Shown: piece by piece, positions 1 through 39,342 of the stretch
Layout: each line of letters begins with the position of its first letter
Numbering within the stretch: position 1 is the stretch's first letter
The notes under the pieces: generated by a model
What the model was told of the DNA's origin: nothing
The model's database searches: none
The model's input: only the letters and a program-made list of their open reading frames with translations
Program-made: the position numbers and the translations under genes
Source of the DNA: a virus
Direction: 5' to 3' (one strand)
Length of the DNA stretch: 39,342 nt
Virus genome (UHGV): UHGV-0147691

Positions 1-39
1 AATGTAGATAAATTTAAAATATTTAATGCTTAAAGGAGA

Positions 40-1946: not shown

Positions 1947-3011
1947 TTACTCTGGTTGCAAAATGGTTGCACCAAGTAAGTTAGCTATCTTCTTACCAGA
2001 ATCAGCATAAACATGGGCATAAACTCTTGAAGTAATACTTGCATCAGCATGGCCTATTCTCTTGGAGATTTCAAAAATGTTTACTCCCATATTTATCAGC
2101 AAGGATACATGACTATGCCTTAAGTCGTGTATCCTTATTTTTTTTACTGAAGATTTTTTTATATAACTTTGCATAGTTCTTCTAACAATTTCTCTTGCAA
2201 CAGGATATACTCTTGAATCTTCATCAGGCTTATAATAAGAATCTGTATATCTTTTTAATAATTTCATTACATTTTCAGGAACATCAACTGTTCTTATACT
2301 TGATAGTGTTTTTGGTGGTGTTATAATATCATTTCTTTCAATTCTTGTAACAGTTTTATTAATATTAATTGTATTCTCATCAAAATTAATATCTTTAAAA
2401 GTTAATGCTAAGATTTCCCCTACTCTTGCACCTGTATAAAATAATAAGTAGAATAGTGAAATATAAAACATATTTTTCCCTTCAAAAGAATTAATAAAAG
2501 TATTAAATTCCTCAACTGTCCATACTTCTTTCTCTGCTGCATGATTATGATTAGTTACTACACCAACTTTTGTTAATGGATTTTCCTTTAATCCGTAAAC
2601 TTTTACAGCATTGTTAAATATTGCACTTAAAGTTTTTTGAACTGATATTAAATAAGCAGCAGAATAATTTTCTTTTAATAATAAATTTTGCCAGTGTCTT
2701 ATTGTTTTAGTATCAATATCACACATCTTTAATTTATAAAAATATTCATATTTAGGTAAAGAATATTTTACTGCCTGATAGCTGCTTAATTTATGTCTTA
2801 CTTTATATTCTTCCATATATATTTCTATAAAACTTTCAAAAGTCATCTCTAAGTTAGATGTATTTTTTAAAAGATATTCTCTTTCCCACTCTTTAGCTTC
2901 TCTTTGAGTGTCAAATCCTCTTTTATGTTTAGCAATAGTTTTTCCAGTAGAATCAGTATATCTAAAATAGCAATCCCATTTTTTAGTTTTTGCATTTCTT
3001 TTTACTGACAT
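1947..3011 (-). CDS. int: Tyrosine site-specific integrase
   Basis: The N-terminus MSVKRNAKTKKWDCYFRYTDSTGK resembles an AP2-like arm-binding domain. The C-terminus has HDLRHSH...RIGHADASITSRVYAHV, matching the catalytic R..HxxR..Y region. The start was moved to M24 of the track ORF, where an AAGGAG-type RBS is present. Confidence 0.85.
   Translation of the reverse strand: MSVKRNAKTKKWDCYFRYTDSTGKTIAKHKRGFDTQREAKEWEREYLLKNTSNLEMTFESFIEIYMEEYKVRHKLSSYQAVKYSLPKYEYFYKLKMCDIDTKTIRHWQNLLLKENYSAAYLISVQKTLSAIFNNAVKVYGLKENPLTKVGVVTNHNHAAEKEVWTVEEFNTFINSFEGKNMFYISLFYLLFYTGARVGEILALTFKDINFDENTININKTVTRIERNDIITPPKTLSSIRTVDVPENVMKLLKRYTDSYYKPDEDSRVYPVAREIVRRTMQSYIKKSSVKKIRIHDLRHSHVSLLINMGVNIFEISKRIGHADASITSRVYAHVYADSGKKIANLLGATILQPE
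1953..1968. repeat. 16-bp direct repeat TGGTTGCAAAATGGTT, copy 2, overlapping the 3' end of int
   Basis: It is identical to 1761-1776. It contains an internal GGTTGCA x2 with 11-bp spacing. Confidence 0.45.
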
Positions 3012-3150
3012 AAAATCACTCCTTTTCTTAATTTTGTGTATTACAAAATAACCAAAGTCGTGATATACTATATTTACCAAATGTGCATACCTTTGACTTT
3101 AGTTAATTGTATGTTAAACAGTTCCTGTTACCAGCAGGAGCTGTTTTTAA

Positions 3151-4257
3151 TTAATTTAATTTTTTAATTTTATTTCCTTTTCTCTCGTCTTTTAATTTCT
3201 TTTTTACATCTTCGTGAGTTTTCATTAATAATTGACATAGTTCTGAACTTAATTCATTACTTGATAGAAAATCAGGAATATCTATATTTTCTTTTCTTAA
3301 TGATATATTAGCAACAGCATTTATAGAGCACATTTTTAAAGAATGTGAGTAATATTTTTCAAGGTCAACAGAATTTTTTTCATATTTTTCTATTATATTT
3401 TCCTCTAAAATCTTAAGAAATAAATCAGGGTACATTTTTATATATCTCTTATTTAAAAATCCTACCTCAGAAGATAAATCCATAATATCACTTGCATATA
3501 AAGGAACTTTAGCTGTATATTTAGCATATAATTCTAATTCTGAATTTCCTGAATACAACTCTAATAATTTTTTTACTGCATTAATATCATTTGAAAATAT
3601 ACAATAAAATAATAAACATTTAAATCCATAAGAGAAAAATGAAGGATTTTTATATATTTTTAATAAATCAAAAATCATTTTTAATGCTTCTTTAGAGTTT
3701 TTTAAAAATAAATATCTTTCAAGTCCATAATAGAATAGGAAAACATAACCTATATCAATATTTGTATTATTCAATGGATTTTCTAGCCATTTTAAATAAA
3801 TATATCTTTGTTCAGGTGTTAATCCTTTATATGATGGAAAATATCCTATTTTGTCTGTTGGATTAGTATTCTTTGGCTCCTCTACTTTTAAAGTAGTATA
3901 TATAAGACTAGGCTCTTCATCACTGGAAGTTGAAAAATTTATCTTTATTTTAATACCTTCAACATCTATTTCACTCTCATCAGAATCTACATAATTATAA
4001 TTTGCATATTTTCCATCTGCAAACCATAAAAGATTTGTAATACTTTCAGATATCTCCATTTTAAATTTTGTGATATTGGTTTTATTTCCTTTATTTTTAA
4101 CTTTAGAAATATCAGTAGTTTTTTTAGTTGTAAGATCATATTGTGAAGTTATTTTATCAGAATTATTTACAAATTCTTTAGTATTTACTTTAGAAGTCTT
4201 CTTCTTTTTGTTGTAATAAAAAAGAATTATTAACAAAATGATTAAAATTATTAACAC
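3151..4257 (-). CDS. N-terminally membrane-anchored 368-aa protein of unknown function in the lysogeny module
   Basis: It has a GTG start with an upstream AAAGGGGA RBS and an N-terminal TM segment, LIILIILLIILFYY, followed by a large soluble domain. It lies between int and the ImmA/repressor pair. Confidence 0.5.
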   Translation of the reverse strand: MLIILIILLIILFYYNKKKKTSKVNTKEFVNNSDKITSQYDLTTKKTTDISKVKNKGNKTNITKFKMEISESITNLLWFADGKYANYNYVDSDESEIDVEGIKIKINFSTSSDEEPSLIYTTLKVEEPKNTNPTDKIGYFPSYKGLTPEQRYIYLKWLENPLNNTNIDIGYVFLFYYGLERYLFLKNSKEALKMIFDLLKIYKNPSFFSYGFKCLLFYCIFSNDINAVKKLLELYSGNSELELYAKYTAKVPLYASDIMDLSSEVGFLNKRYIKMYPDLFLKILEENIIEKYEKNSVDLEKYYSHSLKMCSINAVANISLRKENIDIPDFLSSNELSSELCQLLMKTHEDVKKKLKDERKGNKIKKLN

Positions 4258-9461: not shown

Positions 9462-10057
9462 TGCAAGAAGTTATATTTCTTCAAGGAATGAAAATAATCG
9501 AAGATGTTTATGATAAAGAATTTACAGAAAAAAGACTTGATGCATACAGAACTCTTTTAAGTGACATTCCAGAATCTCTTTTTGTTGATGGAATAAATAA
9601 AATGCTGAGAGAAAGAGTTTATCCAGGTATTCCTACTCCTGCAGATATTAGAAACTACTGTATAGGCAGCATAGAAGAGGGAATTGAGCTTAAAATTGCT
9701 CTTGCTGTAGGGAATATCAGAAAAGCTGTTACAAAATATGGTGGATATAAGACAGTTGCCTTTGATGATCCTATCATTCACAGAATTATAAAAGACTATG
9801 GAACATGGTATGAGTTTTGTACTCTTTCACAAGAGGCACTTGAAAACTTCTTAAAATTTGAAGTTCCTAAGGCTTACAGAATTTATGCAAAAAATAGAAT
9901 AGCAAATATCCCTTTATTTCTAACAGGAAGATTTAAAGAAGATGAGATAACTTATGTTGGAGATAAATCTCAAGCTAAAAAATGGCAGATAGCATATTGT
10001 GAGAAAACAGGGGAAATGTTGCCAAATAACTTAAAAGTTATTGAATATACAGAATAG
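9461..10057 (+). CDS. Hypothetical replication-module protein
   Basis: This is a track ORF whose start ATGA overlaps the upstream stop. Confidence 0.4.
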   Translation: MQEVIFLQGMKIIEDVYDKEFTEKRLDAYRTLLSDIPESLFVDGINKMLRERVYPGIPTPADIRNYCIGSIEEGIELKIALAVGNIRKAVTKYGGYKTVAFDDPIIHRIIKDYGTWYEFCTLSQEALENFLKFEVPKAYRIYAKNRIANIPLFLTGRFKEDEITYVGDKSQAKKWQIAYCEKTGEMLPNNLKVIEYTE

Positions 10058-12464: not shown

Positions 12465-12556
12465 AAGGAGTGAGAGATGAAACTAAAAATTAAAAGACAA
12501 GGCTCTTTCTTAGCTGGAAAATTGAGCCTGTGGGAAAGGATAAAGAGGTTTTTCAG

Positions 12557-13270
12557 ATGAAAAATATCGTATCTTTCAGTGGTGGAAAGGATTCTACTGC
12601 TATGTTGTTGATGATGATTGAAAAAGGAATAAAAATCAATGAAATCATATTTTGTGACACTACTGTAGAATTTCCTGAGATGTATCAACACATTAAGAAA
12701 GTTGAGAAGTATATAAAAATACCTATAACAATCTTAAAACCTCAGAACACATATGAATACATGATGTTTGAATACGAGAAAAAGCGAGGTAAAAATAAAG
12801 GACAACACGGCTATGATTGGGCTGGTCCTAGAGCAAGATGGTGTACTCGTTATTTCAAGTAAGAGGTAATGAGAAAATATATAAAATCAAAATACAAAAA
12901 TGAGCAAGTAATAGAATTTGTAGGTATAGCAGCTGATGAAATAAAACGGCTAGAAAAAAATAAAAGCAAAAATAATTTAAGATATCCACTTGCTGAATGG
13001 GGAATAACAGAACAAGAAGCACTTCAATATTGCTACTCAAAAGGCTTTGATTGGAATGGGTTATATAAAAAATTCAATCGTGTAAGCTGTTGGTGTTGTC
13101 CTTTGCAGTCTTTGAAAGAACTTAGGGTATTATATAAAGATTTTCCTGAGCTTTGGAAAATCTTAAAAGAATGGGACAGCAAAACAAGACGAAAATTTAG
13201 GGCTGACTATTCTGTGAAAGAATTAGAAGAAAAATTTAAAAAAGAAAATATGAAAATTAAACTTTTTTAA
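12557..13270 (+). pseudogene. PAPS-reductase-family PP-loop ATPase gene split by one in-frame TAA at 12860-12862
   Basis: Track ORFs 12530-12862 and 12869-13270 are in the same frame and separated only by TAA-GAG-GTA. The N-terminal half carries SFSGGKDS and RWCTRYFK. The C-terminal half carries the CWCCP motif. An ATG at 12557 is preferred over the GTG at 12530. Confidence 0.5.
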
Positions 13271-15455: not shown

Positions 15456-15564
15456 GAGAGAAAAATGATTAATTTTTTTAATATATATGGAAATTATGGG
15501 CATGGGACTCGTGCTTATGGGATACCTTTATCTTATTACTATAGAACTAAAAAGAGGTAATAAA

Positions 15565-16092
15565 ATGAATTTAAAATTGACTGAAATAGAAACAAATAAA
15601 ATTATTCCTTATGAAAATAATTCTAAGGAACATCCAGAATGGCAAATATCACAAATAATGAAATCAATAGAAGCTTTTGGGTTTAATGATCCAATAGCTA
15701 TAAATGAAAATTTTATGATAATAGAGGGACATGGAAGATATTTAGCAGCAAAAGAATTAAATATGGAAAAAATCCCATGTATTATTTTAACGGGAATGTC
15801 AGATGAACAAATAAGAGCTTATACAATAGCCCATAATAAGCTGTGTATGAATACTGATTTTGATTTGGAAAAATTAAGATATGAAATGAATGCTTTAACA
15901 GTTGAAAATTTTGATATAACTCTTACTGGGTTTTCTCAAATAGAATTAGAGGATATAAATAAAACTTTAGATTGTGGAAAATTAAGATTATCAGAAACTT
16001 ATGAGGATAAAAATAAAGAGATAGATCTTGAAGATGAAGAATTTAAGGATTTTTCTCATTGCTGTCCTCGGTGTGGATTTGAATTTAATTAG
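15565..16092 (+). CDS. ParB-like nuclease-domain protein with a C-terminal CPRCG zinc ribbon
   Basis: IIEGHGRYLAAKEL matches the ParB N-terminal motif. The start was moved to M27 of the track ORF, where there is an AAGAGG RBS. Confidence 0.55.
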   Translation: MNLKLTEIETNKIIPYENNSKEHPEWQISQIMKSIEAFGFNDPIAINENFMIIEGHGRYLAAKELNMEKIPCIILTGMSDEQIRAYTIAHNKLCMNTDFDLEKLRYEMNALTVENFDITLTGFSQIELEDINKTLDCGKLRLSETYEDKNKEIDLEDEEFKDFSHCCPRCGFEFN

Positions 16093-16100
16093 GAGGATAA

Positions 16101-17126
16101 ATGAACAGCTATATTTGGAGATTAGAAGACTTAAAAAATATTGAAAAGAATGGCCTGAAAGTTTTTAGCTGTTTCAGTTGTGGTGGTGGCTCAACAATGG
16201 GATATAAACTGGCAGGCTGTGAAGTAATAGGAAATGTGGAAATAGATCCTAAAATTATTAAAATTTATAAACTAAATCACAATCCAAAATATCCTTTTTT
16301 GATGGGAGTGCAAGAGTTCAAAAATATACCAAATGAGGAATTGCCTAAAGAATTATTTAACTTAGATATATTAGATGGTAGTCCTCCATGTAGTACTTTT
16401 TCTATTGCAGGTAGCAGAGAAAAAGCATGGGGAAAAAAGAAGAAATTCAGAGAAGGACAGACAGAACAGGTACTATCAGACCTATTCTTTGATTTCTTAG
16501 ATGTAGTTGAAAAATTAAATCCTAAGGTAGTAATAGCTGAAAATGTAAAAGGCATGATAATGGGAAATGCTAAAGGCTATGTAAAAGCTATTGCTAAAAG
16601 ATTCAATGAACTTGGATATGATGTCCAGCTATTTTTATTTAATGCTGCCAGTATGGGAGTTCCTCAAGCAAGAGAAAGAACATTTTTTATTGCAAGGAAT
16701 AGAAAATACAATTTCCCAAAATTAAATATATCTTTTAATGAAAAACCTATTTCTTATGGAGAAGTTGAAGAAACATTAAGTGAGAAATATGGAGATAGAA
16801 TTTCTGAGAGAGTATTTGATATTTGGAAAAAAACATATCCAGGTCATAGTTTATCAGGTGCTCATCCACGAGGAAGCTATTTTAATTATTATAGAATTTC
16901 AAAAGATAAACCTGTTAATACAATTACAGCAGCAGAGGGAGGATCTCTTATTCATTATGAACAACCTTGTAAATTATCAGGAGAGGCTCTTATAAAGTGT
17001 AGTTCTTTTCCAATAGACTATAATTTTGCTGATGAATCAATAAAATATATTGTCGGAATGTCTGTTCCGCCTTTAATGATGAAAAGGGTGGTACAAGAAG
17101 TAATAAGACAATGTTTTAATAAGTAG
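16101..17126 (+). CDS. DNA (cytosine-5)-methyltransferase
   Basis: It has motif I (FSCFSCGGGSTMG), motif IV (GSPPCSTFSIAG, the PC motif) and the ENV motif (VIAENVKGM). Confidence 0.85.
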   Translation: MNSYIWRLEDLKNIEKNGLKVFSCFSCGGGSTMGYKLAGCEVIGNVEIDPKIIKIYKLNHNPKYPFLMGVQEFKNIPNEELPKELFNLDILDGSPPCSTFSIAGSREKAWGKKKKFREGQTEQVLSDLFFDFLDVVEKLNPKVVIAENVKGMIMGNAKGYVKAIAKRFNELGYDVQLFLFNAASMGVPQARERTFFIARNRKYNFPKLNISFNEKPISYGEVEETLSEKYGDRISERVFDIWKKTYPGHSLSGAHPRGSYFNYYRISKDKPVNTITAAEGGSLIHYEQPCKLSGEALIKCSSFPIDYNFADESIKYIVGMSVPPLMMKRVVQEVIRQCFNK

Positions 17127-33357: not shown

Positions 33358-33830
33358 CATTGCCTATAAGCTATTTAAAAATTAATGATAATATAGCTGA
33401 AATAGAAGCAGAAAAAGAAATACAAGCTCAAGAAACTATAAAAGAAAAAGATGTTATCTTTGATTTTACAAAAGGGCAGTTTATATACAATGGGTTAGAG
33501 CCTAGTAGAACATATGACAAAATTGAAATTATAAAACAATGGATAAAAAAGTTGTTTTATACAGAGAGAGATAGGTGGAATTGCTATATAAAAGATGTTG
33601 GCTATCCTTTTGGACTTAATCTATATAAATATATCGGACAACAGCTATATCCTGATATGGATTTAATAGAATTAATAAAAGATGATATTTACAACTCTTT
33701 ATTAAATCATAAAGATATAAAAGAAGTTCATTATCTGCAGCTTATACAGATAGATGACAAAATGTATTGTGGATTTATTATTGAACTTGAAGATACAGCC
33801 TTTGAGGTAGAGGAGGTGCTTAAAAATTAA
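33354..33830 (+). CDS. Baseplate wedge protein (XkdS or gp25-like position)
   Basis: Assignment is by position only. Confidence 0.3.
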   Translation: MTLPISYLKINDNIAEIEAEKEIQAQETIKEKDVIFDFTKGQFIYNGLEPSRTYDKIEIIKQWIKKLFYTERDRWNCYIKDVGYPFGLNLYKYIGQQLYPDMDLIELIKDDIYNSLLNHKDIKEVHYLQLIQIDDKMYCGFIIELEDTAFEVEEVLKN

Positions 33831-34876
33831 TGGCAGAATTAGAAAGAATAAATAAAAAAGTTGAAGATATGGCAGAGATGATTTCTTATAATACCTCAAA
33901 AGGAAGTTTTGCAAGAGATATAATAACATCTTGTGCGATTGAAATGGTAAAAGAAGAGGATGATTATTCCGAGCAACTAGATAAAAGACTTATTGATACA
34001 GCTACAGGAACAGATTTAGATGTATCTTGTGCTGATAAAGCCCTTACAAGAAAAGAAGCTGTTAAATCAACAGGTAAAGTTAAAATTACAGGAGTAAATG
34101 GAAGTGTTATAAAAAAAGGATATATCGTTATTAATTCATCTACTGCAACAGAATATGAAGTTCTTGAAGAAAAAACAATAGAAAATATCTCTACAATAGT
34201 AAATATTCAATGTACAAAAGCAGGAGTAATAGGAAATTGTGAAGTAGGACAGATAAATAAATTTGGGCAAGAATACACTGGACTATCTCGTGTAGAAAAC
34301 TTAGAGAACATCATAAATGGTAAAGATATAGAAACAGATGATGAACTAAGAACAAGAGCTTTGGAATATATAAGAAAACCTCGTATTTCATGGAATCAAT
34401 ATGTATTTGAAGATAAGGCAAAGGAAGTTTCAGGAGTGGAGCATTCTCATTGTATTCCTAGATTTAATGGTGCAGGAACTGTAAAACTTGTTATAACTCA
34501 AAAAGACACTGAAACAGTTTCTGAAGAATTAAAAAAGAAAGTAAAAGATTATATTGATTTAGAAATAATATCTGATATTGATATCACAGTTGAGGGAGTT
34601 GAAATTAATAAAGTTGACATAGTTGTAAAAGGCTTTATCAGCTCAGATTTTAATGATGAAGCTGCAAAAACAAAATTGACAGAAGTTTTAAATAATTTCT
34701 TCTTTGAAAATCTTTTTAAGGAAAAAATATATTACTTCGATATTGTGGAAATAATTCAGCATGCAGGCTGTATAACGAAAATTGGAGATGTTACAGTTGC
34801 AGGAACTAGAAACGATATAGTTTTAAATGAAAATAAATTATGTAAAGTAAAATCAATTACTTTGCAGAAATTATAG
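33830..34876 (+). CDS. Baseplate J-like protein (XkdT-position)
   Basis: It is a 348-aa protein whose position and size fit the Baseplate_J family. Confidence 0.4.
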   Translation: MAELERINKKVEDMAEMISYNTSKGSFARDIITSCAIEMVKEEDDYSEQLDKRLIDTATGTDLDVSCADKALTRKEAVKSTGKVKITGVNGSVIKKGYIVINSSTATEYEVLEEKTIENISTIVNIQCTKAGVIGNCEVGQINKFGQEYTGLSRVENLENIINGKDIETDDELRTRALEYIRKPRISWNQYVFEDKAKEVSGVEHSHCIPRFNGAGTVKLVITQKDTETVSEELKKKVKDYIDLEIISDIDITVEGVEINKVDIVVKGFISSDFNDEAAKTKLTEVLNNFFFENLFKEKIYYFDIVEIIQHAGCITKIGDVTVAGTRNDIVLNENKLCKVKSITLQKL

Positions 34877-37626: not shown

Positions 37627-38370
37627 ATGAAAGATTTTCAAAAAACTTTAAAAGAATTAAGAGAACTTTCAACAATAAATGAAGAAACAAAAGCATTACT
37701 TGAAAAAATGACAGGTAAAGAATTAGTAGACTACGAGAGTATAGATGCTCTCGTAGGAGCTTTAATGACACACTATAACGGAGAACTTAAAAAGAAAGCA
37801 ACAACAAGTCATAGCCATACTTGGTTAGAAGTTACAAGTAAACCAACTACATTCCCGCCAAGTTTACATAATCATGATGAAAGATATTATACAGAGGAAG
37901 AAATAGATACTAAATTTAAAAATTCTGTTCCTGTTCCCGTAGGGGCTGTACTTACTATGTGGAATAATACCAATCCTGCTGAATTATTCTCAGGAACTAC
38001 TTGGGAGTTAATTACTGCAGGAAAATATATCCAATCTGGTAGTACAGCTTTGAGTACAGGAGGAAGCAATTCTGTAAGTATTGCAAAAGCTAATCTTCCA
38101 AATGTTAAGTTAAAAGTAGATAGTTTCTCATTAACTACTCAACCACATACACATAAACTTGATTGGAATGCAGGATACGATGGTGGAGCAACTGGCCCAA
38201 TTACAAGAAGTAGATGGGGAGTTAGCGGACAATCTTCAAGCGGTGTTCATTCATCAGGAGGACAGAATACAGGAACAGCTTCTCCGTCAACTGAAAGCCT
38301 TGGAAGTGGAACAGCTTTATCTATTCAACCAGCTTATATTACTCTAAAGTTTTGGAAAAGATTAAGTTAA
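37627..38370 (+). CDS. Tail fibre protein with a C-terminal phage-tail-collar or receptor-binding domain (expressed orientation)
   Basis: It carries SHSHTW and LHNHDERYYT motifs. The C-terminal domain is homologous to the minus-strand cassette. Confidence 0.55.
   Translation: MKDFQKTLKELRELSTINEETKALLEKMTGKELVDYESIDALVGALMTHYNGELKKKATTSHSHTWLEVTSKPTTFPPSLHNHDERYYTEEEIDTKFKNSVPVPVGAVLTMWNNTNPAELFSGTTWELITAGKYIQSGSTALSTGGSNSVSIAKANLPNVKLKVDSFSLTTQPHTHKLDWNAGYDGGATGPITRSRWGVSGQSSSGVHSSGGQNTGTASPSTESLGSGTALSIQPAYITLKFWKRLS
37901..37922. repeat. Inverted repeat, left copy: AAATAGataCTAAATTTAAAAA (candidate crossover site inside the fibre gene)
   Basis: It has a 13-bp perfect inverted match to 38828-38840, plus a 6-bp flank match after 3 mismatches. 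Confidence 0.45.
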
Positions 38371-38850
38371 ACGTTTCCAGATATTAACTGCTAAGTAAGG
38401 GGGTATAATACTAAAAGGAGTTCCTTTTCCTGTACTTTCTATTGTTGTTATGGGGCTTGCACTACCTGTTGTTTCTCCTCCTGCTGAACTTGTAATCCAA
38501 TAACTGCTTGGATTAGGATTTCTCCAATGGGCTGCATTAACTGCAAAATATTTTCCAGATTGCACTTCAGATGTACTTCCTTGCCCATGATAATGTTCTG
38601 GTTGAGTGTGGACGTGACTAGCTGTTATAGCATTATGTGTATGAGCTGGTAGATGTTCTATGGTTAATTTTACTGTGCTAGCTCCGCCAGTACTTCCTAA
38701 AGAATAATTAGAACCACTACCTAATAAAAATTTACTTTCTATTTTTTCCCAAGTAGTCCCTGTATAGATTTCAGCAGGGTTTGAAGTGTTGCACATCATA
38801 AGGATACCACCAACAGGGACAGGATAGTTTTTAAATTTAGGAACTATTTT
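38362..38850 (-). CDS. 5'-truncated alternative tail-fibre C-terminal (collar-domain) cassette, silent in this orientation
   Basis: It is homologous to residues from about 95 to 247 of the plus-strand fibre. The homology, KIVPKFKNYPVPVGGIL, continues upstream of the first ATG at 38799 to an in-frame stop at 38851-38853. No promoter or RBS is evident. Its 3' end overlaps the plus gene's 3' end by 9 nt. Confidence 0.5.
   Translation of the reverse strand, partial: KIVPKFKNYPVPVGGILMMCNTSNPAEIYTGTTWEKIESKFLLGSGSNYSLGSTGGASTVKLTIEHLPAHTHNAITASHVHTQPEHYHGQGSTSEVQSGKYFAVNAAHWRNPNPSSYWITSSAGGETTGSASPITTIESTGKGTPFSIIPPYLAVNIWKRLT
38828..38849. repeat. Inverted repeat, right copy: the reverse complement of AAATAGttcCTAAATTTAAAAA
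   Basis: See the left copy at 37901-37922. Confidence 0.45.
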
Positions 38851-38946
38851 TTAAGAAAAATCTCTTGTATAAATCTTTATTTAAATAATAAAACGACGTA
38901 ATAATTCACAATTACAAACTATAAAAAGTAATTTTAGGAGGTAAAA

Positions 38947-39342
38947 ATGGTTAGTAAATACTTTAAAATACAAGAATTAGTAAGTGAAGCTGTATATAAA
39001 AAATATGGCGATAAATCTTGGGAATTTATAGATACAAGACTAATAAAAGTCCTAGATTTACTAAGAGAACATTTTAATAGACCTATTACTGTAAATAATT
39101 GGCTATGGGGTGGCAATCTTCAGCAAAGGGGACTAAGAGCGAATAAAGATGAATTAGTGGCAAATAAAAAAGATTATTATATTAGTCAGCATTGTTTAGG
39201 AAAAGCAGTTGACTTTAATGTTAAAGGTCTCTCTGCTCAAGAAGTTTATGATGAGATACTGAGAAATATAGAAAAGTTTTATCTAATTTCTAGGATAGAA
39301 AATATTAAGGATACTCCAACATGGGTACATATAGACGTTGCT
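38947..39342 (+). CDS. Endolysin of the peptidase M15 (VanY/L-Ala-D-Glu peptidase-like) family, truncated by the window end
   Basis: It has an AGGAGG RBS. ISQHCLGKAVDF and WVHID match the M15 zinc-ligand motifs. The ORF has no stop within the window, and its frame continues at nt 1-36 (NVDKFKIFNA*) if the sequence is circular. Confidence 0.6.
   Translation, partial: MVSKYFKIQELVSEAVYKKYGDKSWEFIDTRLIKVLDLLREHFNRPITVNNWLWGGNLQQRGLRANKDELVANKKDYYISQHCLGKAVDFNVKGLSAQEVYDEILRNIEKFYLISRIENIKDTPTWVHIDVA

Follow-up and report, generated by a model that had tools for sequence, protein, structure and literature searches.

A probable recombinase-less member of a family of invertible tail-fibre tip cassettes in phage genome UHGV-0147691

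The UHGV virus genome UHGV-0147691 (39,342 nucleotides, all of which were analyzed and are referred to here as the window) encodes, downstream of its baseplate genes (Baseplate_J, 33830-34876, by Pfam), a tail fibre whose gene converges with a minus-strand open reading frame (ORF) for a second version of the fibre's own C-terminal domain, the tip. An earlier note on this DNA had described the arrangement as a candidate shufflon-like switch, in which inversion between two repeats would exchange the receptor-binding domain, with no invertase in sight. Here, we describe the locus, compare it with related loci (numbered with the prefix L) and weigh how such a switch would stand in this phage. Asterisks denote stop codons, and the elements of the locus are the following.

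37627-38370, plus strand: tail-fibre gene, 247 amino acids (aa), C-terminal end WKRLS*.
37627-37909, plus strand: constant N-terminal part of the fibre, residues 1-94, as far as the crossover core.
37898-37922, plus strand: left crossover site (IR-L), outer arm AAGAAATAGATA and core CTAAATTTAAAAA, within the coding sequence for E-I-D-T-K-F-K.
37923-38370, plus strand: expressed tip cassette A, candidate receptor-binding domain (Gp10_C), ending WKRLS*.
38362-38827, minus strand: silent tip cassette B, open from the core to WKRLT*, with no start of its own at the site.
38828-38852, minus strand: right crossover site (IR-R), core CTAAATTTAAAAA and outer arm AAAAAATAGTTC.
38853-38946, no strand: distal flank F, non-coding, between the cassette pair and the endolysin gene.
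38947-39342 continued at 1-33, plus strand: endolysin gene (Peptidase_M15), crossing the circular junction (...WVHIDVA before it, NVDKFKIFNA* after it).

The convergent arrangement holds at every coordinate. The minus-strand frame is open from 38850 to 38365 and stops at 38364-38362, ending in WKRLT*, and its stop codon and that of the fibre gene overlap within 9 nucleotides (nt; 38362-38370). Aligned by BLASTP (fibre residues 92-247 against the whole minus-strand frame), the two tips are homologous, with 40% identity over 163 aa (E=2e-27), and fall into the same Pfam family, PF21939 (Gp10_C; E=7.8e-7 for tip A and E=1.4e-11 for tip B), not into the Collar family that the label "collar-type" in the earlier note had implied. 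The alignment begins at EIDTKFKN in the fibre and KIVPKFKN in the minus-strand frame, that is, upstream of the first ATG of that frame at 38799, and the homology reaches the in-frame TAA at 38853-38851, as had been claimed.

The inverted repeat (IR) at corresponding positions of the two copies, first given as about 22 bp, extends to 25 nt (37898-37922 and 38828-38852), of which 22 match, including an exact 13-nt core, CTAAATTTAAAAA; the first T of the TAA codon lies one base beyond IR-R. In the window, the core is found at these two places only, and a single copy with one mismatch, inside a gene elsewhere, is within chance expectation. Inward of the repeat, inverted homology continues at 73% (78 nt); outward, it is degenerate, with a TTATAC block displaced by an indel of 9-10 nt. 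The core is thus better conserved than its surroundings, and it is invariant in the approximately 50 related cassettes described below. Read directly from the sequence, the K-F-K-N codons, including the K codon singled out before, stand in identical phase in both repeat copies, and recombination at the repeats would join the constant 98 residues of the fibre in frame to the alternative tip. Flank F contains a degenerate copy of the fibre sequence that codes for ...ERYYTEEE... (38853-38900, compared with 37868-37900), and the invariant TTATAC block outside IR-R is shifted by the 9-10 nt insertion, about one helical turn; judging from their sequence, this copy and this block may be left over from an old duplication or may form an accessory binding site.

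The core is also the point at which related fibres diverge. In a protein search, fibre residues 1-98 were 100% identical in four proteins (P0002-P0005), each with a different tip after ...EEEIDTKFKN, and in the window fibre and these four proteins the break between the shared N-terminus and the differing tips falls at KFKN, i.e., at the core.

In a tblastn search with both tips, all related loci found proved to contain convergent tip pairs whose 3' ends overlap, the relatives coming from Fusobacterium records. Pairs with overlapping stop codons are present in L001-L007, L030-L039 and L120-L129 (two pairs each in L003 and L007, three in L006). The approximately 50 cassettes, whether expressed or silent, all begin at the ATTTAAAA core and remain open to WKRxx* in a background of 28.5% G+C, and the invariance of the core extends to copies with a non-coding outer flank. 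The clade of the window has TAAATTTAAAAA as its core, with a semi-conserved outer arm before it (consensus aAAtAg.Tac) that persists in non-coding contexts; the core of a second clade is ATTTAAAAATTTCTGYCC, and this core and a good outer arm make up the palindrome AGAAATTT-AA-AAATTTCT. Outer arms are conserved across four unrelated contexts, coding or non-coding. In L030-L034 and L126, the expressed cassette likewise stands behind IR-L with the same outer arm, IR-R together with its outer flank recurs in L001, L035 and L124, and flank F is the distal boundary of four-cassette, recombinase-bearing shufflons in L003/L116, L001, L123, L124 and L127.

Purifying selection maintains the silent cassettes as coding sequence: the ratio of non-synonymous to synonymous substitution rates (dN/dS) is 0.06-0.25 in silent-silent comparisons (0.27-0.28 in expressed-expressed ones). 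The 145-aa ORF of tip B is present in exact form in at least 24 contigs (exact look-up); compared with the copy in L035, tip B shows a dN/dS of 0.06 (5 synonymous and 1 non-synonymous changes), and identical tip B is found on both short (247-aa) and long (705-766-aa) fibres, in every slot (flanks F, post-recombinase and A). To judge from its sequence, tip B is a real, selectable alternative receptor-binding domain, out of this phage's reach by itself. The heads of the cassettes, i.e., the first ~25 nt past the core (37923-37947 and 38803-38827 in the window), come in the forms SVPVPVG, YPVPVGG and YCPxSVG and are exchanged between cassettes that are otherwise at least 98% identical; the expressed tip of L031 begins with the silent head of the window, and the reverse is also true. 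Crossovers or repair tracts are therefore not limited to the core.

The relatives have what the window lacks. Ahead of one silent cassette, they have an ORF whose last codons read ...LMRKNAGLI* and which ends about 15 nt short of the site. Its product is a tyrosine recombinase (PF00589, E=7e-21) of 314-323 aa; it has an N-terminal SAM-like domain but no arm-binding domain, is classified as Xer-like in NCBIfam, and has XerA as its nearest solved structure in the PDB. The recombinase is present in L001, L002, L003, L006 (two copies), L007, L031, L038, L123, L124 and L126-L128. In the canonical layout (L007, L003, L126), the constant part of the fibre is followed by a site, a convergent tip pair (tip> <tip) and a second site, then by one or more accessory ORFs and the recombinase gene, then by another site, convergent pair and site, and finally by the lysis genes. 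L005 has neither the recombinase nor the distal pair.

Relatives carry four to six sites, and both single-pair and central-segment inversions are seen among them. All comparisons of isomers are between assemblies, not between reads from one culture. Between L123 and L124, one pair is cleanly inverted, in that the pair is 99.2% identical and collinear and both flanks are inverted; L124 and L127 are 98-99.9% identical in each segment, with two pairs exchanged; and in L038 compared with L039, the recombinase-bearing middle segment is inverted, with both break points at cores. Compared with L036 (97.7% identical), L037 appears to have lost both tips by a precise deletion between two near-palindromic cores. 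When the cassettes of the contigs bearing tip B were clustered at a DNA identity of at least 95% over at least 90% of their length, the same cassettes were recovered next to different flanks (CONST, constant part of the fibre; flanks A and F; post-recombinase):

Cassette C, at least 99.0% identity: CONST (expressed) in L125, L127, L128 and L129; F in L123 and L126; post-recombinase in L124.
Cassette S, at least 98.3% identity: flank A, F and CONST.
Cassette Y, 100% identity: CONST and post-recombinase.
Cassette B (silent tip of the window), at least 97.9% nucleotide identity: F, post-recombinase and A.

Recombination at the sites accounts for these arrangements among the relatives, because no other process would give identities this high and break points this exact. 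The shufflon-like, invertible fibre-tip architecture that the earlier note had read from a single genome is supported. Some apparent cases were set aside: L033 and L034 were rejected as two orientations of one segment, their cassettes being only 75-81% identical; L031, L002 and L001 were considered as outermost-site inversions, and inversion of the central recombinase segment, as between L038 and L039, is simpler; and contig ends near sites (0 nt in L033, 2 in L035, 11 in L032, 26 and 40 in L001) are suggestive only as proof of within-sample mixtures and were not relied on.

Several irregular junctions occur in these loci. In L037 (3726-3750, compared with 6280-7274 of L036), the junction lies inside the core (GAGAAATTTAAAAAT joined to TGCTGAC) and the fibre gene ends in KFKNC*; this loss of the tips may be either a true deletion between inverted palindromic sites or an assembly shortcut. 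L128 contains the 3' end of the fibre constant part twice (1-80 and 3706), one copy fused to cassette C and the other, at the contig end, joined in frame to cassette S, which suggests that both junctions exist in sample DSOU22-1_SAMN20850303. In L038, the half-site at 9465-9500, made up of outer flank and ATTTAAAAA, leads into an unrelated 245-aa ORF in place of a tip cassette and marks the truncated distal end of that shufflon.

The window itself is a complete circular phage genome of 39.3 kb, as follows from the endolysin ORF that spans both of its ends; L003 carries a 146-aa orthologue of this endolysin, which stands in the window where the relatives have lysis genes directly after the shufflon. 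By Pfam, the sole recombinase in the genome is an arm-type tyrosine integrase (1947-3080, minus strand). A profile of the shufflon recombinase built from seven family copies found no match in any stop-to-stop frame of the circularized window, the integrase scoring E=0.94, and tblastn detected no similarity between the integrase and the family recombinase. Hin and Gin, used as approximate query sequences in tblastn and phmmer, matched nothing in the window or the close loci, and a serine invertase was accordingly rejected as the enzyme of the window. The claim that the window encodes no invertase anywhere thus stands for the closed circle. A diversity-generating retroelement was likewise rejected: none of the 30 window ORFs scanned with Pfam has a reverse-transcriptase domain (a scan that covered about half of the ORFs of at least 70 aa), and the repeats are inverted and diverged throughout, not only at adenines.

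The closest comparison is with the sibling locus L126, which is 99.1% identical to the window at the DNA level over 3.5 kb upstream, up to window position 38088. L126 carries the recombinase and four cassettes, and tip B lies there in the opposite orientation (98.6%, inverted); the window has only the constant part, the convergent tips A and B, flank F and the endolysin gene. A two-cassette product of the same kind, with cassettes C and B, is found in L035 on a short fibre and in L129 on a long, 764-aa fibre.

It is very probable that the region belongs to this recombinase-driven family of invertible tips, with two sites and a silent tip of the functional kind. That the window is a recombinase-less derivative of the family, static unless complemented, we hold at a probability of roughly 0.7. 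The two-cassette module consists of the constant 98 residues, a crossover site, the expressed tip A, the convergent silent tip B and the inverted crossover site. The Xer-like recombinase (~315 aa) of the relatives would act on sites built around TAAATTTAAAAA, and inversion of the pair would place the other tip in frame behind the constant part, yielding a changed receptor-binding domain; to judge from what such tips do in other phages and from how diverse the cassettes are, receptor specificity would change with it. The architecture of the locus points to an origin by deletion between two sites in the same direction, which would have removed two cassettes together with the recombinase and left the constant part, tip A, convergent tip B, flank F and the endolysin gene. 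The switch is most likely locked in this phage, because the genome, although it has kept both sites and the silent tip intact, has no gene for an enzyme to act on them; the switch would flip only if a co-resident related prophage provided the recombinase. The host-range switch without an invertase is thus largely explained away, the window being an orphan, degenerate instance of the family.

Orientation data fit a locked switch. Four further assemblies with the exact fibre protein of the window have the same orientation, making five of five with the window itself. The predicted flipped fusion, the N-terminus followed by tip B, was absent from the protein search that did return four proteins with the same N-terminus and other tips; for the long fibre with tip B, no high-identity protein match was obtained, in a search that missed known proteins and so is not evidence of absence.

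Several points weigh against a derivative that is static and arose by simple deletion. Tip B was not seen in the expressed slot anywhere, by a silent-ORF look-up that is biased against finding it there and a protein search that is non-exhaustive, and a minority flipped population in the source sample of the window is possible. No direct precursor carrying tip A was found. Recombinase-less two-cassette forms recur (the window, L030, L035, L129 and L005), with silent cassettes intact, and such forms could be kept in use in trans, not being dead ends. Finally, because some break points lie inside tips (near 38290 between the window and L035, 67 nt past the site between L030 and L031, and at the swapped heads), homologous recombination also reshapes the cassettes, and not all rearrangements are site-specific.

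The recurrence of intact recombinase-less forms leads to the alternative of a switch that still works, operated in trans by a shufflon recombinase that a related prophage in the same Fusobacterium cell would encode. The sites would permit this, given that IR-L equals the constant-part site of L126 and L031 and that IR-R with its flank equals that of L001 and L124; the silent tip, separated from its L035 copy by the few, mostly synonymous changes given above, is intact; and forms without the recombinase have turned up repeatedly, on two fibre backbones and in each of the two clades. The single orientation in all five assemblies and the missing fusion protein speak against it, and the intactness of tip B may merely reflect recent loss of the recombinase, so that we regard flipping in trans as unlikely. 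The relatives' dedicated, adjacent Xer-like tyrosine recombinase, together with the same orientation and protein data, also goes against the earlier note's idea of a switch operated in trans or by the phage integrase.

Rather unlikely, too, is a broader scheme in which the recombinase-bearing middle segment or single pairs would be excised and reinserted at any site, tips would move in an integron-like manner between unrelated fibre backbones and between co-resident prophages, and recombinase-less phages would be flipped and re-armed in trans. Such movement is suggested because tip B occurs on short and long fibres in every slot, L037 has precisely lost a pair, L124 and L127 have exchanged pairs, and L006 consists of two units that share one pair.

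In another alternative, the silent cassette would only donate sequence, with host RecA or a phage recombinase carrying out homologous recombination or gene conversion and the core and the WKRL end serving as homology anchors. Tip A, whose nearest relative is the silent cassette of L030 (78% at the aa level), is a mosaic: its first ~180 nt match the expressed tip of L126, and the final ~80 nt agree at 98% with those of cassette C in L035 and L126. The window and L035 have in common tip B and the last ~80 nt of the expressed tip (98.4%) and differ in the rest. Likewise, L030 and L031 are 99% identical until 67 nt past the site, and the heads (SVPVP, YPVP or YCP, ~25 nt) are exchanged between otherwise near-identical cassettes. 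The mosaicism of tip A therefore implies that homologous exchange acts on the cassettes too. As a replacement for site-specific inversion, however, it is improbable: the large rearrangements break exactly at cores, outer arms are conserved in four unrelated contexts, the recombinase gene is physically linked to the sites, and a repeat of 13-25 nt is a poor substrate for RecA. Homologous exchange is real and additional to site-specific inversion.

Being the sole recombinase in the genome, the arm-type integrase might be supposed to invert the segment, as might a host recombinase, given that host-encoded recombinases acting on several invertible elements exist in other bacteria. The relatives, however, use a dedicated and very different enzyme, to which the integrase shows no resemblance beyond the profile score of E=0.94; the core recurs in the window only as the one chance-level copy; and no flipped form was seen, which together make inversion by the integrase or the host very improbable.

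That the minus-strand ORF is a small gene in its own right (starting at ATG 38799, 145 aa) or a functionless, decaying duplicate is an idea to which we give next to no credence. Gene callers annotate the 145-aa protein (P0001), a weak GGTGG stands 7 nt upstream of the ATG, and promoter-like hexamers are present further upstream on the minus strand (38958-38918), but these hexamers are no more frequent than in shuffled sequence, and both the homology and the conserved site extend upstream of the ATG. Silent cassettes also differ in where their first in-frame start codon falls (in L003, only after more than 65 codons), and a silent cassette is therefore not a stand-alone gene, as the earlier note had argued for tip B; of its statement that the ORF has neither ribosome-binding site nor promoter, the second half holds and the first is weakened by the GGTGG. 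Decay is excluded by the dN/dS values of 0.06-0.25 and by approximately 50 intact frames at 28.5% G+C.

Searches of other collections added little. The metagenome scan with the constant region retrieved only relatives at 66-71% identity (L036-L040), and 75 further metagenome loci were discarded as irrelevant, having only an HxH...DERYY motif in common. A DNA search of INPHARED with the region returned only a chance 53-nt Staphylococcus match. Exact-pattern scans of IMG/VR for tip B, after the constant flank or in any context, gave zero matches, and these phages are therefore not represented in that collection.

Among known systems, the closest in layout is the Rin shufflon of Bifidobacterium prophages, in which a constant part of the receptor-binding protein is followed by variable cassettes behind 11-bp sites and a XerD-like tyrosine invertase acts on them (Mavrich et al. 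2018; PMC6109161); Rin was reported as the first phage-encoded tyrosine DNA invertase (PMC6109161), the same type was later seen in Eggerthella lenta prophages (PMC8778435), and gene-altering programmed inversions in prophage tail-fibre genes have been catalogued across bacteria (PMC9881135). The present family shares with Rin the constant N-terminal segment, promoterless C-terminal cassettes each behind a short asymmetric repeat, inversions at the repeats that alter the expressed tip and, in the relatives, a neighbouring tyrosine recombinase that is built like XerD and has no arm-binding domain, the likeness being one of layout. It differs in host phylum and phage type, the phages here being myovirus-like, of low G+C and Fusobacterium type; in the fold of the tip (Gp10_C here, TP901-1-like in Rin); in the site (centred on TAAATTTAAAAA and partly palindromic here, the 11-bp TTCCCTAACCC in Rin); in the convergent cassette pairs with overlapping stop codons; and in the position of the recombinase between the pairs, inside the invertible segment, with the window itself having none. 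The family extends tyrosine-recombinase fibre shufflons from phages of Actinobacteria to a Gram-negative, low-G+C lineage.

The likeness to the G segment of Mu, the C segment of P1 and the P segment of e14, drawn by the earlier note, holds for function but not for the enzyme. In these systems and in Min of p15B (invertases Gin, Cin, Pin and Min), inversion likewise swaps the receptor-binding C-terminus of the fibre while its N-terminal part stays constant, with in-frame repeats inside the coding sequence; their enzymes are serine invertases of the Din family, whereas that of the relatives is a tyrosine recombinase, and no serine recombinase match was found here or in close relatives. Din-family systems use 26-bp sites with a 2-bp crossover and a Fis-dependent enhancer. 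Segments of the Mu G type also carry genes for fibre-assembly chaperones (U/U'), whereas the invertible segment of the window (37923-38827) holds two tip cassettes only.

In the shufflon of R64 and IncI plasmids (Rci, sfx, pilV), a tyrosine recombinase likewise selects one of several C-terminal adhesin tips by multi-site inversions, and the sites are asymmetric, as in the second clade here, where the core and inner arm (ATTTAAAAATTTCTGYCC) are conserved and the outer arm varies. Gyohda and colleagues reportedly described, in 2002, sfx sites with a conserved core and inner arm and a variable outer arm. R64 differs in its target, the adhesin of a conjugative pilus; the recombinase here scores as Xer-like; and deletions between sites evidently occur here (L037 and the recombinase-less forms), whereas the asymmetry of sfx suppresses them.

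The nearest matches to the recombinase in the phage collection are in two isolated Fusobacterium phages, Funu1 (KR131710; L117, 3970-6945) and phiRTG5 (OR492272; L118, 4331-6942), both of which encode a homologue (45-46%) immediately after the tail-fibre gene; their tips and site sequence are different, and the gene is labelled just "integrase" in the records. PhiRTG5 is Mu-like, with transposase A and B genes; it integrates by transposition, and its recombinase homologue is therefore not needed for integration. Two small convergent ORFs overlap the 3' end of its fibre gene, and a motif, TTGAATAATCT (coding for LNNL), occurs once in the fibre gene and twice inverted, so that, from its sequence, the locus looks like an unannotated fibre shufflon. 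No description of a fibre shufflon in Fusobacterium phages was found in the searchable literature.

Phages of Fusobacterium are under development as agents against F. nucleatum in periodontitis and colorectal cancer, and an unannotated, recombinase-driven tip switch would, if real, make host range variable within a single phage stock. The family provides a natural series of on, off and broken states, ranging from intact four-cassette forms and deletion forms to a recombinase that an insertion sequence (IS) has interrupted, and its features of interest are the convergent pairs, the recombinase inside the invertible region, the repeated loss of this recombinase and the tips common to different fibres.

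The interrupted recombinase is that of L125 (2378-4876), where an IS110-family transposase gene separates residues 1-104 from residues 104-315; this insertion is another route to a locked shufflon. In L006 (299-7575), two different fibre genes face each other, one coding for 309 aa (plus strand) and the other for 371 aa (minus strand), with three cassette pairs, two recombinase copies (96.5% identical) and two copies of a 194-aa ORF between them, the whole forming a large mirror image with a central pair common to both units. Accessory ORFs travel with the recombinase between pairs (L003, 3998-5272; L038, 8170-9404; L005, 1128-2396; and a 219-aa ORF in L123-L128), and two of them end in ...ALEKFKNKF..., resembling the crossover site in peptide and DNA.

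Elsewhere in the window, holin-like ORFs follow the endolysin gene (40-767), a gene for a TerB_N-domain protein adjoins the integrase gene (3151-4257, minus strand), a short ORF resembling PAPS reductase and PP-loop proteins is located at 12530-12862, and genes for a ParB_N protein and, after it, a C-5 cytosine DNA methylase are located at 15487-17126.

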